Shown here piece after piece: positions 50,609-57,021 of a stretch of DNA of 64,000 nt. The stretch is from assembly GCA_050950285.1 (NCBI GenBank), contig JBMNHG010000011.1, positions 186,001 through 250,000 of the forward strand, written 5' to 3'. This DNA comes from Kiritimatiellia bacterium. Lineage in GTDB: Bacteria; Verrucomicrobiota; Kiritimatiellia; RFP12; JBMNHG01. The notes beneath the pieces were generated by a model. The model saw only the letters and a list, made by a program, of their open reading frames with translations. It was not told the DNA's origin and ran no database searches. Position numbers and translations under genes: made by a program. Position 1 is the stretch's first letter; the number at the start of each line of letters is the position of its first letter.

Positions 50609-50657
50609 GGCGCCAGTGTAGCGGGGGCCACGCCGTTGCGCAACCCGAAACGAAAAT

Positions 50658-52468
50658 CCCTAAACTGCGGGAGATTTGGCGCGAGGGCGTTTCGAAGGGC
50701 CGGGAGCACGGTTTGACGGCTGTCGGGAGGGGGATCGAAGGGTGCCGGCTCTCCGTCGACGCCCTGCTTGTTCCTTTTCCAGGCGTTTCCAGCCTTGGGG
50801 AGGGCGTCGGGCGCCCTTCCAGGCGAAATCCAGGCAGGCTCCGCCGCGGCCGGGCTGTCGCCCGTCCGTCCGGAGCCGTCCGGTTCCGGCTTTTGCCTCG
50901 CGCTACGTCGATTCGGTGGGCTGCACCCGGCAGGGGAACGCCTCGAGCAGCTCCAGGACGCGCTTCACCCACTCCTTCGGGGCGGCGAAGCGCAGGACGA
51001 TCTTGCGGCTGAGCCGCGAAAGGCGCGCGCCGGCCGTCAGCACGTGGAAGCGCACGCCGCGCACGCGCCGCACGCGGTTCTCCGGCTCCGGGTCGGCCGC
51101 CCGGAGCGCGGCGGCCATGTTGTAGGCCACCGCGTTGAGCGCGAACCAGGCCGCGTTGGCCCCGAACTTCTGGCTCGGCGGGCGGGCCGCCGCCAGGTCG
51201 TTCTTCATTTCGTCGTGGACGTGCTCGACCGTGCCCGCCTTCCCGCGGTGCCATTCGACGACCTTTTCGCCCGACTCCGCCCGGTTGGTCGCCACGGCGA
51301 AGTGCTTGCGGTCGTTCCCGTCGTCGAAGAGCTCGCCCTGGGGCTTGAGGAAGCGGAGCCCGATGCAGCGCCGGGGGCGCGCATGCTTGTTCTCGGAGCG
51401 CAGGCCGGGGACGTAGTCGAGCTCGGCCCACTGCTTGAGCGTGCCGTCCGGTTCGCGGTCGAACGTCTTCCACGCATCTTCGGGGACGCGGCGCGCGGCG
51501 GCCGCCACTTCCGGGACCATCCGGACGCTGATCGCGTAGTCGATCCTGCCCCGCGGGCCGCCCTCGCGCTCCGGATCCTCGAGCCAGCCGTACAGGTCGT
51601 TGTTGTCGCAGGCGCTGTCGCCGCGAAAGCCGAACACGCGCACGCTCGGGGGGAGTTCGGCGAACGCCAGGCGCGCGCAGCGGAGGGGGTCCTTGGAGGC
51701 GGGCACGTTGCCGTCGCGGAACTCGGTGGCCAGCACCACGCCCGCCTCGGCCCAGACCGCGACCACCGGCTGGTAGCCCCGCTCCCCCGTGTAGGCGACC
51801 GTCGCCGAGCGCTTGTTGCTCTCCACGATCGTCGCGTCCAGGTCGACCGTCGCCACCGCGGGGCTCCCCCCGGGCTGGCGCGCCGCCGCGGCGCGCGCCG
51901 AAACCCCCACGACCGCCTGCAGGCCGCGAAGCCCCTCCGTGGGCTCGGGCACGCTCGACTTCAAGTCCAGCTCGAGCGCCCGCTCCCGCGCCCGCGCCAC
52001 CGCCTCCGCGTCGTGGAAGCGCTCGAGCCAGTCGCGAAGGGCGCGGGAGCCCGGCGCCTGGAAGCCCAGCATCTTCGACACCGCCGGATCCCCGCGCAGC
52101 CGGTCCACGTCCTCCACGCATCCCGCGCCGAGCATCAGCGCGCACGCCGCCGACTCGACGAACTCGCCCGCCGTGAAGCCGAGCCTGATGCGGCGCAGGG
52201 CGCCGAGGTTCGCGTCGCACGCCCCGGGAAGCCCCATGCCGCGGAAGACGCGGGAGGCCACCGCCATGCCGCCAAGGCCGGTCACGGTGCCGGGAACGGG
52301 GTCCGGGGAGATTTCGTAGGGGATTTTCCATTGGGTAGGGGTTTTCGGTCTCATGGGCGCATATTCTATCAAGACAGCCTTGATGAAACAAGCGGGAAAT
52401 TATCGCCGTTTTCCCGCTCCATTCCAGCACTTCGGAGACCCTCGCAAAAAATCTCCCGCAAAACAGGG
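50658..52468 (-). mobile_element. IS1380-family insertion sequence, complete (1811 bp)
   Basis: TIRs CCCTAAACTGCGGGAGATTTGGCGCGAGGG and CCCTGTTTTGCGGGAGATTTTTTGCGAGGG (23/30 match); 5-bp TSD AAAAT at 50653-50657 and 52469-52473. Confidence 0.9.
50903..52354 (-). CDS. IS1380-family DDE transposase
   Basis: TVDLDAT, YTGERGYQP, FRDGN, FRGDSA and WHRGKAGTVE...KNDL...FGANAAW motifs. Start is 52354 or 52372. Confidence 0.9.
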   Translation of the reverse strand: MRPKTPTQWKIPYEISPDPVPGTVTGLGGMAVASRVFRGMGLPGACDANLGALRRIRLGFTAGEFVESAACALMLGAGCVEDVDRLRGDPAVSKMLGFQAPGSRALRDWLERFHDAEAVARARERALELDLKSSVPEPTEGLRGLQAVVGVSARAAAARQPGGSPAVATVDLDATIVESNKRSATVAYTGERGYQPVVAVWAEAGVVLATEFRDGNVPASKDPLRCARLAFAELPPSVRVFGFRGDSACDNNDLYGWLEDPEREGGPRGRIDYAISVRMVPEVAAAARRVPEDAWKTFDREPDGTLKQWAELDYVPGLRSENKHARPRRCIGLRFLKPQGELFDDGNDRKHFAVATNRAESGEKVVEWHRGKAGTVEHVHDEMKNDLAAARPPSQKFGANAAWFALNAVAYNMAAALRAADPEPENRVRRVRGVRFHVLTAGARLSRLSRKIVLRFAAPKEWVKRVLELLEAFPCRVQPTEST

Positions 52469-52597
52469 AAAATGCCGGTGCACCCCCCCGCGGATTCTTG
52501 CGAAGTGCCGAATTTTTCATCCGGAATCGCCCGCGGCCCATTACAGGCGAATCGCGTGAAGAACGGCAATCCGGAAAGGACAGGCTCAAAGCCGGCG

Positions 52598-53011
52598 CTA
52601 TTCGCCCAATATGTCCCAGAATGCATCCCATTCTTGGCCTAGGGATTCAATAGCCTTGTCCATCGCATCAAGTTCTCCTCTGAAAGCATCGACACATTTT
52701 TGTGAACAAAAATAAAGATCACCCAGGTTGTACGGGGTGAGGGGAGGGTTGTCGTTCCGTATGATTTGCTCGGCTGCGCCGTACGAGCTTGCTCCGCCGA
52801 GGTATCGACCCGATGTGGAGGAGCCCCGCCAGACATAGCAGGTTCCGTCCCAATCGTCTTGTTGAACATAGTAACATTGGGTCATTTGCCTCCCGCAAGA
52901 CGGGCACTCCCGCCCCCATACCGACAGGTGCGAGGTCGTCGCGCAAGATGTCAGGAGCATTGCGGCGGTTGCCGTTGCCAACAACGTGCGAGCGAATTGG
53001 AACGCTTTCAT
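52598..53011 (-). CDS. Orphan Cys-rich lipoprotein, AT-richer
   Basis: MKAFQFARTLLATATAAMLLTSC lipobox; CPSC...C...FCSQKC. Confidence 0.65.
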   Translation of the reverse strand: MKAFQFARTLLATATAAMLLTSCATTSHLSVWGRECPSCGRQMTQCYYVQQDDWDGTCYVWRGSSTSGRYLGGASSYGAAEQIIRNDNPPLTPYNLGDLYFCSQKCVDAFRGELDAMDKAIESLGQEWDAFWDILGE

Positions 53012-53123
53012 CTGGCTTCCCCGATTTTCTTTCATGTGGAACGACGACAGGGTTGATAGGATGACGAATTATTCCCCCCCGCCAGCAGCAGGGGTGTCGC
53101 GCTGGCTGCTGGCTGACAAGCCC

Positions 53124-55129
53124 CGTATAAACGGTTCTTCCCGGAACGCCGCCCACATTGCCAACACGCCAACTGCGGTAGCCATCCCTGCCGATCCTCC
53201 AGCCCGCCGGGGACGGCGGTCCCCAGGGGCGGATCGGGAAGGTCGGACTCTGTCCCGACCGGTTTGCGCAAGGGGTTTTGCAAGCGTCCCAATGAATACT
53301 AACCCGGCCACAATTCATGCTGCAAAACAGGGGAACGGGTTTTCCAACCCATGACACGGACAGGAATGTCCGTGCCCCTTTCCCAACTCCAAATTCCAGC
53401 TCCTCATGCCTGAATCTCCGTGAGCAGCGCGATTTGTGGCCGAGTTAGTAACGACAACGATTTTTTCGTGAACGCGAACGCTTGCCGCTCCGCTGGGTAC
53501 GGATGCGGCGAAGGGCGGATGGCGAACGGCCGCGCCGGGACGGCGGGCTCCAGCGTTGCGGCGGCAGGTTCGCCCATCGTGGGCCGGGGCGCTGGGGACT
53601 GCGGTCTCCGCGGGCAATGGATTTCAAAGCCCTGCAAGGGCGGCGTATACCAGCCCTGGGCAACGCCCGGGGATTGAACGATCGTATAAACGGTTCTTCC
53701 CGGAACGCCGCCCACATTGCCAACACGCCAACTGCGGTAGCCACCCCTGCCGATCCTCCAGCCCGCCGGGGACGGCGGTCCCCAGGGGCGGATCGGGAGG
53801 GTCGGGCTCTGTCCCGACCGGTTTGCGCAAGGGGTTTTGCAAGCGTCCCAATGAATACTAACCCGGCCACAATTCATGCTGCAAAACAGGGGAACGGGTT
53901 TTCCAACCCGTGACACGGACAGGAATGTCCGTGCCCCTTTCCCAACTCCAAATTCCAGCTCCTCATGCCTGAATCTCCGTGAGCAGCGCGATTTGTGGCC
54001 GAGTTAGTAACGACAACGATTTTTTCGTGAACGCGAACGCTTGCCGCTCCGCTGGGTACGGATGCGGCGAAGGGCGGATGGCGAACGGCCGCGCCGGGAC
54101 GGCGGGCTCCAGCGTTGCGGCGGCAGGTTCGCCCATCGTGGGCCGGGGCGCTGGGGACTGCGGTCTCCGCGGGCAATGGATTTCAAAGCCCTGCAAGGGC
54201 GGCGCATACCAGCCCTGGGCAACGCCCGGGGATTGAACGATCGTATAAGCGGTTCTTCCCGGAACGCCACCCACATTGCCAACACGCCAACTGCGGTAGC
54301 CATCCCTGCCGATCCTCCAGCCCGCCGGGGACGGCGGTCCCCAGGGGCGGATCGGGAGGGTCGGGCTCTGTCCCGACCGGTTTGCGCAAGGGGTTTTGCA
54401 AGCGTCCCAATGAATACTAACCCGGCCACAATTCATGCTGCAAAACAGGGGAACGGGTTTTCCAACCCGTGACACGGACAGGAATGTCCGTGCCCCTTTC
54501 CCAACTCCAAATTCCAGCTCCTCATGCCTGAATCTCCGTGAGCAGCGCGATTTGTGGCCGAGTTAGTAACGACAACGATTTTTTCGTGAACGCGAACGCT
54601 TGCCGCTCCGCTGGGTACGGATGCGGCGAAGGGCGGATGGCGAACGGCCGCGCCGGGACGGCGGGCTCCAGCGTTGCGGCGGCAGGTTCGCCCATCGTGG
54701 GCCGGGGCGCTGGGGACTGCGGTCTCCGCGGGCAATGGATTTCAAAGCCCTGCAAGGGCGGCGCATACCAGCCCTGGGCAACGCCCGGGGATTGAACGAT
54801 CGTATAAACGGTTCTTCCCGGAACGCCACCCACATTGCCAACACGCCAACTGCGGTAGCCATCCCTGCCGATCCTCCAGCCCGCCGGGGACGGCGGTCCC
54901 CAGGGGCGGATCGGGAGGGTCGGGCTCTGTCCCGACCGGTTTGCGCAAGGGGTTTTGCAAGCGTCCCAATGAATACTAACCCGGCCACAATTCATGCTGC
55001 AAAACAGGGGAACGGGTTTTCCAACCCGTGACACGGACAGGAATGTCCGTGCCCCTTTCCCAATTCCAAATTCCAGCTCCTCATGCCTGAATCTCCGTGA
55101 GCAGCGCGATTTGTGGCCGAGTTAGTAAC
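53124..55129. repeat. Tandem array of 559-bp units (3 complete plus about 0.6), REP/MITE mosaic
   Basis: Units start CGTATAAACGGTTC at 53124, 53683, 54242 and 54801 and differ by only a few substitutions. Confidence 0.95.
53297..53450. mobile_element. 154-bp MITE-like element (copy 1; further copies at 53856-54009, 54415-54568, 54974-55127)
   Basis: 27-bp TIRs TACTAACCCGGCCACAATTCATGCTGC and TACTAACTCGGCCACAAATCGCGCTGC (23/27) enclose an inverted REP-like doublet. Confidence 0.6.
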
Positions 55130-55322
55130 ACCGCCTGCGACGTCGAGGATGCCGGTTGCCGTCGGTTGCCGGCGGCATGCGGGCGGCCTCGTCGTCCGGG
55201 CGCCCGCCGCTTCGAGGGAAGCGCCTGGATCGCGTGCTTCCGCGACAGCCCCGTCGGCCCGAAGCCCCGGCCAGGGCCGAGTCCTGTTTTGTTTTCATCT
55301 CGGCATCGCGACAGCAAAGGCA

Positions 55323-55351
55323 TTGCTGTCGGACGGGCGGTTTGCTATCCT
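55323..55351 (+). promoter_or_regulatory. sigma70-type promoter of mcsA-mcsB-clpC
   Basis: TTGCTG-17 nt-TATCCT with a TG extension. Confidence 0.55.
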
Positions 55352-55366
55352 TGTTCCCTTCTACCC

Positions 55367-55963
55367 ATGAAATGCGAAATCTGTCATGAGCGCAACGCTT
55401 CCGTCGCCATTCACAAGACGGTGGACGGCAAGGATTGCGAGTTGTACGTTTGCGCGGGGTGCGCGAAGCGGGAAGGGGCGCCTTCGGACGCCTCTCGTCC
55501 CGGCGTGGAGATTTCCGGCGAGTCCGCCGCCCCGTCGGCCGCCTCCATGGAGGCCCTCGAGGAAAAACTTTCCGGGCTGTTGTTCCATGCCATCTTCGAC
55601 GCTGTCGGCGGAGACCTTGCCGCGATGTCCGACATCCATTGCCCGAAATGCGGGCTCACCCGCGTGCAATACCGCAAGGAAGGGCGTCTCGGTTGTCCTG
55701 CCTGCTATCGCGCCTTCGGGGCGGAATTTGCGTCCATGATCCAGGGGATGCATCGCGGCACGGTTCACGTCGGGAAGATCCCCGCCTCCGTGTCGTGCAA
55801 GCGCGAGGCGGATCGCGTGGCCGCGAAATTGCGGCTTGCCGTGAAAGAGCAGCGCTACGAGGATGCCGCCCGCCTGCGCGACCGGCTCCGCCAATTGCGC
55901 CCTGACGCGAAAGAACTCCGCGACAACGGGGACGACGCCCCGCAGGGGGGAGGGGCGTTTTGA
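55367..55963 (+). CDS. mcsA: Protein-arginine kinase activator McsA
   Basis: Four CxxC motifs (CEIC, CAGC, CPKC, GRLGCPACY), HVGKIP and a C-terminal UVR motif (YEDAARLRDRL). Confidence 0.92.
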   Translation: MKCEICHERNASVAIHKTVDGKDCELYVCAGCAKREGAPSDASRPGVEISGESAAPSAASMEALEEKLSGLLFHAIFDAVGGDLAAMSDIHCPKCGLTRVQYRKEGRLGCPACYRAFGAEFASMIQGMHRGTVHVGKIPASVSCKREADRVAAKLRLAVKEQRYEDAARLRDRLRQLRPDAKELRDNGDDAPQGGGAF

Positions 55964-57021
55964 GCCGCAACCCGAAAACATTCCGCCGCCCTGCCGCGAA
56001 GTCCGCCCCCGAGGCGGACGTGGCGGTCTCCTGCCGCGTGCGTCTTGCGCGCAATCTGGCGGGCCACCGCTTCCCCGATTGGGCCGGCGATTCCGAGCGC
56101 GAGAAGATCCGCCAGCGGCTCGAGAAGGCCGTGATGGCGACGCCGGCCTTCCGGAAGGGTGTTTCGATGGCGGTCGAGCAGATGGACGACCTGATGCTGG
56201 AGGAGCTTTGGGAACGCCGGCTGATCAGTCGCGACCTGATGGATTGCGGCGCGGGTTCCGGCGTGGCGATTTCCCGGGACGCCACCCTTTCCGTGATGTT
56301 CAACGAGGAGGACCACCTCCGCATCCAGGTGCTCCGGCCCGGAATGGACGTGAAGCGCGCCTGGGAACTGGCGGACCAGGTGGACACGCAGATCGAGCGG
56401 AACGTGCGCTACGCCTTCGACGAGACGCTCGGCTACCTCACCTCCTGTCCGAGCAATCTCGGCACCGCGCTGCGCGCGAGCGTGATGCTCCATCTGCCCG
56501 GGCTCCATTACGAAGGCGACCTCCAGGCCGTGTTCCGCGCCTTGGACGCCTTGCGCGTGGAGGTCCGGGGCATGGGCGGCGAGGGGTCCGAATCCGTCGG
56601 CACCCTCGTGCAGGTCTCGAACCAGGGGACGTTGGGGCTCGACGAACCGTCCGTCGTCTCCGGACTGCTTCGCATCGTCGACGAGACCGTTCGGCAGGAG
56701 CGCTTCGCCCGGCGGCGTCTCCTGCGCGACAGGCCGCTTGTCGCCCTCGACTATGTGGCCCGGTCGCTCGCGATGCTCAAGAATGCCCGTATCATGGGCT
56801 TCGAGGAGGCCGTCTCCTTCCTCTACGCCTTGCAACTCGGCCTCGAATGGGGCATGCTCGACGGGATCGACCGGAAGACGCTCGACACCCTTGTCGAGGA
56901 TATGCAGCTCGGTTTCCTGCGGCGCTCCGCCGACGGCGTCGTTCCCGATCCATTCCATTTCGCCGCGTTTCGTTGCGTCCTGTTGGGCGAGCAACTTTCC
57001 AACGTTGAACTTCGTTCTTGA
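55960..57021 (+). CDS. mcsB: Protein-arginine kinase McsB
   Basis: SCRVRLARNL, NEEDHLRIQ, GYLTSCPSNLGTALRASVMLHLPGL and QVSNQGTLG motifs. Confidence 0.93.
   Translation: MSRNPKTFRRPAAKSAPEADVAVSCRVRLARNLAGHRFPDWAGDSEREKIRQRLEKAVMATPAFRKGVSMAVEQMDDLMLEELWERRLISRDLMDCGAGSGVAISRDATLSVMFNEEDHLRIQVLRPGMDVKRAWELADQVDTQIERNVRYAFDETLGYLTSCPSNLGTALRASVMLHLPGLHYEGDLQAVFRALDALRVEVRGMGGEGSESVGTLVQVSNQGTLGLDEPSVVSGLLRIVDETVRQERFARRRLLRDRPLVALDYVARSLAMLKNARIMGFEEAVSFLYALQLGLEWGMLDGIDRKTLDTLVEDMQLGFLRRSADGVVPDPFHFAAFRCVLLGEQLSNVELRS

Follow-up and report, generated by a model that had tools for sequence, protein, structure and literature searches.

Between a small gene and the mcsA-mcsB-clpC genes, the 64,000-nt window analysed here (the whole stretch of DNA under study, on contig C11 of a Kiritimatiellia genome of 4.05 Mb, 12 contigs and 99% completeness) carries an array of 559-bp tandem repeats, the existence of which is confirmed by independent sequence data. 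The reading that we consider reasonably probable is that the array is non-coding, probably neutral, and a recent tandem amplification of intergenic mobile-element pieces, of the kind represented by atypical BIMEs and tandem REPIN clusters. The array itself is ordinary genome debris, of little import.

Structure of the array

The array, the components of its unit, and its neighbours are as follows (unit positions are counted from the first base of each copy).

53073-53115, no strand assigned: dispersed hairpin repeat left of the array, unamplified; 6 other copies (E<0.01)
53118-53167, minus strand: IS110-family left-end stub, about 50 bp; 89.8% identical over 49 bp to the element end at L119/L123
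53124-55129, no strand assigned: tandem array, 2006 bp, 3.59 copies, period exactly 559 bp
53124-53682, 53683-54241 and 54242-54800, no strand assigned: array copies 1-3; partial copy 4 at 54801-55129 (329 bp)
53198-53286 (unit 75-163), plus strand: hairpin repeat pair C, in all four copies; a dispersed family with many BLAST matches
53297-53450 (unit 174-327), also 53856-54009, 54415-54568 and 54974-55127, no strand assigned: 154-bp MITE, TA at both ends
53329-53379, plus strand: REP doublet D, within the MITE (MITE positions 33-83)
53462-53623, plus strand: dispersed repeats E (about unit 339-393) and F (unit 394-500), in copies 1-3 only
53626-53672 (unit 503-549), minus strand: hairpin G, a degenerate Acido-Lenti-1 (RF01687) motif, in copies 1-3 only
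55272-55286, plus strand: terminator-like hairpin between the array and mcsA; weak, as 1 was found against 3.2 expected from shuffles
55367-55963, plus strand: mcsA, outside the array
55960-57021, plus strand: mcsB, outside the array
to 59698, plus strand: clpC, outside the array

An earlier, sequence-only reading of this DNA had described some 3.6 near-identical copies with an exact 559-bp period, and this was borne out: three units of 559 bp are followed by 329 bp of a fourth, at 99% identity (99-100% among the copies). Tandem Repeats Finder misses the array, as the longest period it reports is 500. The copies differ at eight sites, all of them transitions, given here in the order of copies 1-4.

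unit 8: AAGA
unit 28: GGAA
unit 62: TCTT
unit 117: AGGG
unit 124: AGGG
unit 228: AGGG
unit 264: CCCT
unit 523: TCC (copies 1-3)

Copy 1 has four private variants and copies 2, 3 and 4 have one each, leaving unit position 28 as the sole site that separates copies 1-2 from copies 3-4. Stepwise amplification had been proposed from substitutions shared by neighbouring copies. Both of the substitutions then quoted exist, but only the one at position 28 is common to two copies, the variant at position 523 being private to copy 1, so that the support for a stepwise process comes from one site.

The claim that the array encodes no credible protein also held. A Pfam search with three array ORFs gave no match, and GC3 is low in the array ORFs (0.61-0.73 in seven, compared with 0.77-0.94 for mcsA, mcsB, clpC, pgm and the IS1380 gene), on which grounds a coding repeat was rejected; the 145-aa neighbouring ORF is also low, at 0.59. 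The neighbouring genes are what they had been taken to be, with Pfam matches to UVR (mcsA), ATP-gua_Ptrans (mcsB) and Clp_N/AAA (clpC). Hairpins of several classes are indeed present in each unit, namely a 154-bp element with 27-bp inverted ends, a REP doublet, which turns out to be located inside the 154-bp element, and other hairpins.

Independent evidence for the array

Logan contigs of four public runs, out of 24 listed, were compared with the window. The unit junction is crossed by a contig in X5 and in X12 (30 letters past the junction, which is one under the 31-letter rule applied). In X5 the depth is 41-43 in the flanks, 110.8 for the contig that holds the E-F-G part and the unit joint, and 115-143 in the four-copy part; the corresponding values in X12 are about 4, 10.1 and 15.4. 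Relative to the unique flanks this amounts to 2.6 for the three-copy part and 2.7-4.0 for the four-copy part, near the expected 3 and 4, with the qualification that depth is a rough guide and not a copy number, that it was taken from X5 and X12 contigs only, and that these runs may be akin to the source sample. The ratios are alike in the two runs, both represented by contigs, which cannot resolve differences in copy number.

These data make it extremely unlikely that an assembler had expanded one or two true copies. While no contig or record spans the whole array in the runs compared (X10 is too shallow), and none of the copy-1 variants turned up in the listed contigs (53646 is C in X5), the inter-unit joint occurs in both X5 and X12 with depth ratios of 2.6 up to 4.0, and X12 contigs match copy 3 without mismatch, which means that the copy-3 variants at unit positions 8 and 28 are real. 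The remaining differences between X5 and the window are at 52661 and 55356. At 52661 all three DNA runs have T where the window has C, either a strain variant or a consensus error.

In the RNA run X20, also represented by contigs and with the organism barely covered, 8 of 30 bins had matches, the pieces belonging to other MITE or IS110 copies, and the E-F-G part was uncovered. One 268-nt contig of this run (depth 62), which matches window positions 54801-54843, consists of an IS110 left end and the flank of the intact element; it possibly reflects bridge-RNA expression from another copy or organism, outside the array.

Composition of the repeat unit

The unit is a mosaic of repeats. A total of 176 BLAST matches elsewhere in the genome cover 527 of its 559 bases (94%), while 20 shuffled sequences gave 0 matches. 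The whole unit, by BLAST, occurs at one locus in the genome. In a comparison with 41 genomes, nine matched, each time through single sub-elements, and the whole unit was found in none of 40 relatives. The suggestion of a REP/MITE composite resembling a long-unit BIME can thus be kept in part: an IS630 MITE, RAYT-type REPs and an IS110 end can now be named, but the unit as such does not disperse, since it is present at one locus only and whole in none of the relatives. Its length of 559 bp also stands, but not as something unique, as the genome has REP/MITE arrays with periods of 328, 636 and 1767 bp.

The leftmost component is the IS110 stub, which in the later copies is 44 bp only (53683-53726, 54242-54285 and 54801-54844; unit 1-44). 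The element whose end it matches, at L119/L123, has a 398-aa ORF (NF033542, 170 bits; cut-off 140), and an IS110 element of this type is multicopy in G040, a genome of another family. No IS110 gene of the stub's type was found in the present genome, nor was the IS110-end pattern found among viral contigs. Two motifs of family C have 79 and 14 sites in the genome and none in the reversed genome, and the hairpins of repeat F are related to this family. Homologues of E and F occur at C8:291894-292124, C3:509044 and C8:230712, and the two stand side by side in other Kiritimatiellia loci as well. A cognate transposase for families C/F and E was not found in the genome, which has three PF01797 matches only.

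The 154-bp MITE

The 154-bp element has 27-bp inverted arms and no ORF. Near-full copies make up 55 of its 95 genomic matches, 47 of them with distinct flanks, and their median identity is 93%. Among the 44 sites scored, after dropping three with damaged ends, 35 have TA on both sides; the preceding base is a pyrimidine in 38 and the following one a purine in 39 (a YTAR target). A paralogous empty site, C2:524590-524617, has a single TA; a second candidate (22 bp, 1 mismatch) was left out of the count. IS630 elements duplicate TA on insertion, and the TA counts at the MITE flanks fit this. The MITE has probably spread by IS630 cut-and-paste transposition.

The MITE end motif, searched for in one genome per species (46 loci), was found on 1110-1111-bp elements with a 344-aa ORF at four loci. 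Two of these (L023 and L033) belong to one Kiritimatiellia MAG, in which MITE copies of 150-158 bp are also numerous, and the others (L028 and L035) to two Planctomycete MAGs. The protein encoded at L033 belongs to the IS630 transposases (PF13358; NF033545, 226 bits, cut-off 100). Judged by these common ends, the parent of the MITE is a 1111-bp IS630 known from three other MAGs. A tblastn search of this assembly (E<=1e-3) gave no cognate IS630 gene, nor is any gene in the genome framed by a long inverted pair of MITE ends, so either the MITE is an orphan in this genome or the gene is missing from the assembly. Resident IS630 elements were rejected as partners, as their ends differ. MITE-like ends with a common left flank at L016, L041, L045 and L049 proved to be coding sequence, a coincidence.

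The MITEs of the array form a group of their own. At arm position 8 they have C/T, a state confined to these four, T/C being the state of 44 of the 55 copies. Identity is 99-100% within the group, and no copy outside it comes closer to its members than 97.4%. This pattern points to one insertion that was amplified in place.

Elsewhere the MITE is itself involved in nesting. It lies within a putatively IS1595-derived mini-element of about 420 bp, which has spread in its turn to at least four sites (C3:508609-508762, C2:560167, C6:396522 and C8:227965). At C4:54333-54603, C8:78515-78875 and C2:693396 an element end is inserted in the REP doublet of the MITE, with an apparent duplication of 25-29 bp.

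The REP doublet and its RAYT gene

Doublet D flanks a Y1/RAYT gene (C2:874977-875747, 257 aa) as an inverted hairpin pair (C2:874489-875841), and does likewise at L093. In genomes G048 and G023 it is present without the inverted MITE ends, which indicates an independent repeat that was captured by IS630 ends. The gene has the motifs NHVH, WQ and YIRQNP, which are those of TnpA-Y1 subclass 2.7 (PMC6006769), and scores 74.5 with the NCBIfam RAYT model, just below the cut-off of 80. An assignment to subclass 2.3 was rejected, because the motifs fit subclass 2.7 (PMC6006769, Table 1 and Table S1), and the gene fits the description of a subclass-2.7-like RAYT. Compared with the REPtrons of this subclass (PMC6006769), the likeness lies in the gene motifs and in the stem and loop of D. 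The differences are that subclass 2.7 REPs carry a GT[AG]G foot (PMC6006769), while D has none, its hairpins being preceded by an AGGG-type sequence; that most D copies are inside a MITE; and that the gene stands between hsdS-like and hsdR-like genes and shows 98.75% DNA identity across two families.

The latter figure comes from G040, which belongs to another family and holds both the MITE and the same RAYT gene (L093), 98.75% identical over 640 bp. The gene has the same hsdS-hsdR setting there, with diverged neighbours (hsdR is about 67% identical). An identity of this order between two families does not fit vertical inheritance, and recent horizontal transfer of a RAYT cassette within a type I restriction operon is apparent from the comparison. 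According to one account (10.1101/2021.07.10.451892), transfer of RAYTs between hosts is rare and REPINs are a class apart from MITEs.

Exact motif sites of doublet D, a count that misses the array's own variant, number 60, of which 51 are in MITEs or their derivatives and nine elsewhere (five at the C2 RAYT gene, one at another Y1 gene, and three in a mosaic beside a CRISPR array). Since most sites are MITE-borne, they do not record spread of free doublets by the RAYT. It is very likely, on the distribution of these sites, that a REP family is here spreading as the cargo of an IS630 MITE. No report of a REP-carrying IS630 MITE was found in a word-matching search of a limited library of literature, which hints faintly at novelty. 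Where a RAYT REP spreads mainly as IS630-MITE cargo, the published line between REPINs, as slow and vertically inherited, and MITEs, as fast and short-lived, becomes blurred, and REP copy number cannot be read as RAYT activity.

Hairpin G and Acido-Lenti-1

The only notable Rfam match in the array is that of hairpin G to Acido-Lenti-1, with 29.7, 26.3 and 26.3 bits, below the gathering cut-off of 37. Its closest relatives in the genome score 45.2 and 41.8 bits, above that cut-off, and the relatives cluster near a 150-aa Y1 gene at C8:57440-57889. The motifs of the latter (DHVH, WQ, YLDRQAEHH) fit TnpA-Y1 subclass 1.2 (PMC6006769), for which reason a class 3 assignment was discarded; no REP is given for subclass 1.2 in that source.

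Loci of homologues of this 150-aa Y1 protein carry the Acido-Lenti-1 motif in 8 of 19 cases (E<=0.05), compared with none among 20 controls (other Y1 loci in 18 cases, IS630 loci in two). At two of the eight, inverted copies are located about 50 bp on either side. The Acido-Lenti-1 motif therefore behaves as a DNA repeat flanking subclass-1.2-like TnpA-Y1 genes, a role that was not found in print. Hairpin G aligns with the Rfam model end to end and has relatives that exceed the gathering score, but the array copies are under the cut-off, and the motif is seen as a DNA repeat at the flanks of subclass-1.2-like Y1 genes. The locus is thus a case for reading Rfam Acido-Lenti-1 as a transposase-flanking DNA repeat. 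Beside the subclass-1.2-like Y1 gene there is also a nested array (L124, C8:54498-58800), with 153-bp units contained in 636/789-bp units and repeats of the Acido-Lenti-1 type.

Gene context and possible function

A multicopy structured ncRNA had been offered as the other possible reading of the array, and this finds no support: 94% of the unit is made up of other repeats, the Rfam match falls short of its cut-off and belongs to a repeat found at transposase flanks, and the same-genus genome G001 has none of the array DNA before mcsA, where a gene is found directly 5' of mcsA. The broader possibility of a functional locus, whether as a structured RNA in several copies or as a control element, tuned by copy number, for mcsA-mcsB-clpC or the small gene to the left, is also very improbable. 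The unit RNA has a strong predicted fold (z = -4.6; the 154-bp element as DNA, z = -6.6), but the fold stems from known palindromic repeats. The weak Rfam match would be in favour, but the same motif is found at transposase flanks (8/19 loci against 0/20 controls). The array sits before a stress operon, and REP-like DNA precedes mcsA in G034 too; against this stand the situation in G001, the lack of a whole-unit homologue in 40 relatives, and the count of promoter-like sites in 53000-55400, which is 0 with 0.5 expected. A possible promoter was recognized by eye at 55323-55351, about 190 bp beyond the array and below the scan threshold. Nothing in these comparisons appears to support an RNA gene or a regulatory role; no host benefit of the array is detectable at this level, and it is probably neutral.

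The small gene to the left (52598-53035, minus strand) is a 145-aa lipoprotein-like ORF with a GC3 of 0.59, no Pfam or NCBIfam match, and no paralogue in the genome. Further left is an intact IS1380-family element (50903-52372, minus strand; NF033539, 220 bits), with inverted ends near 50657-50687 and 52439-52469 and six or more near-identical copies at other places in the genome. At C10:15276-19341 and about ten other sites there is a 4-kb gene segment, 96-98% identical, near RHS-type ORFs.

Origin of the array

A sequence of five events would account for the array. At least four REP-type hairpin families and an IS110 stub evidently gathered between the small gene and mcsA, and the 154-bp IS630 MITE, consisting of IS630 ends and a RAYT-type REP doublet, inserted once, at a TA. 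One illegitimate duplication of 559 bp would then have joined the G-hairpin spacer to the IS110 stub; in DNA so rich in hairpins, slippage during replication or a switch of template is its most likely cause. Homologous recombination among copies would have raised the number to four, and a deletion ending at the right end of the last MITE would have taken the last 230 bp. Since no pre-duplication allele was found (X5, X10 and X12 all have the same right joint, the four runs compared gave no alternative one, and a metagenome scan for an ancestral allele returned only four distant mcsA loci), the last three events are reconstructions.

Several details bear on the order of events. IS110 homology extends six bases into the left flank of copy 1 but not across the inter-unit joint, which suggests that the former joint is old and the latter new. 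Resemblance to IS110 sequence is also seen in the first ten bases of hairpin G, which leaves room for a different order. The inter-unit joint shows no microhomology. A complete MITE stands 2 bp before the end of the array, and neither flank has the E-F-G part, so that one deletion is needed. The arrangement is common to at least two sampled populations, showing that it was not purged at once. One locus of another genome (L024) has the MITE-E-F order at 71% identity, with a different insertion point.

Tandem amplification is frequent in this genome. Among 27 arrays detected at >=88% identity (two of which may represent a single locus where contig ends overlap), 13 carry the motifs of the present array, and periods range from 51 to 1767 bp. 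Arrays internal to the MITE, with units of 121, 66, 51 and 121 bp, are found at C6:189004-189762, C2:967487-968168, C2:570441-570747 and C3:713255-713529, respectively, and their joints bracket the REP doublet. Arrays at C11:590-1621 and C10:49291-50323, with 328-bp and 240-bp units made up of REP types D and G and part of a CRISPR repeat, are located at the edge of a CRISPR array; the end of C10 and the start of C11 overlap at 95-97%.

Amplification could alternatively have been driven by a RAYT, with a Y1/HUH protein nicking at its cognate REP (D or G) and the 3' end priming rolling-circle-like addition of units, a route modelled for E. coli BIMEs. We regard this as unlikely. The genome does have two intact-looking Y1 genes with cognate repeats, the inter-unit joint is about 10 bp from hairpin G, and TnpA-REP cuts away from REPs and joins strands in vitro (PMC3333891). 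Internal break points of rearranged MITEs also cluster around the doublet, 15 of 17 falling in MITE positions 31-88 where 9.0 are expected (p = 0.002), but this interval was picked post hoc and the points are not independent. Hairpins alone promote slippage, so break points around the doublet are predicted by hairpin slippage and by RAYT nicking alike. In the arrays inspected at base level the break points differ (16-87), several with short microhomologies, and the joints of the present array lie outside doublet D, which has no subclass 2.7 foot. Variable break points and the position of the joints favour host processes over the RAYT.

Aberrant transposition through the MITE ends on sister chromatids could in principle have produced both the duplication and the right-hand deletion, and is quite improbable. 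The array stops 2 bp past a complete MITE end with its TA, and MITE ends are found in three other arrays (C6:188999, C3:713287 and C4:70973), but the inter-unit joint is away from the MITE end, the assembly yielded no cognate IS630 gene, and the two extra shared bases permit a microhomology deletion.

A more ambitious proposal, to which we give a rather low probability, is that the 154-bp element is a two-enzyme hybrid: its IS630 ends would move it, its RAYT hairpins would license HUH nicking and amplification nearby, seeding arrays with units of 50-1,800 bp, and MITE, IS630 and a near-identical RAYT cassette would have travelled together from one Kiritimatiellia family to another. RAYT-driven amplification is the part of it that is in doubt. 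If true, it would provide a natural system in which REP spread is separated from REP-linked amplification, with both testable. Slippage or template switching followed by recombination, as host processes, is the origin preferred here.

Comparison with known systems

The MITE belongs with the IS630-dependent MITEs of bacteria. It has their length of about 150 bp, their inverted repeats at the termini and their duplication of TA, is dispersed in tens of copies, and has ends in common with a full-length IS630. Its cargo is unusual, as it differs from them in its interior, which is a RAYT REP doublet and not IS630 sequence. RUP, Correia/NEMIS and ERIC share TA duplication and a link to IS630. All three are named among bacterial MITEs in PMC3733652.

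A minisatellite-containing MITE of P. gingivalis (PMC4596501) likewise links a MITE with short units amplified in tandem. In that case the MITE contains the tandem repeat, an arrangement that is also seen in the MITE-internal arrays of this genome, whereas in the present array the MITE together with its neighbours is the amplified unit.

The closest parallels are the atypical BIMEs and BIME-2 of E. coli and the REPIN clusters of P. fluorescens SBW25. Tandem REPIN clusters that include flanking DNA are described for SBW25 in PMC3116915, as are locally amplified BIMEs with locus-conserved copies in PMC3333891. The array is like them in being an intergenic, head-to-tail, near-identical mosaic of REPs and flanking DNA, with copies conserved within the locus and with RAYT genes and their cognate REPs in the genome. 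It is unlike them in the length of its unit, 559 bp where the largest SBW25 cluster is given as just over 700 bp in total, in mixing at least four repeat families with an IS630 MITE and an IS110 end, and in having no GTAG foot. The array is thus an intergenic tandem REP mosaic conserved within its locus, as a BIME is, but where a BIME alternates REP and iREP of one system with short linkers, the array combines unrelated families, a MITE and an IS110 stub. By analogy, it would appear to work like an atypical BIME or tandem REPIN cluster while not being a member of either by composition.
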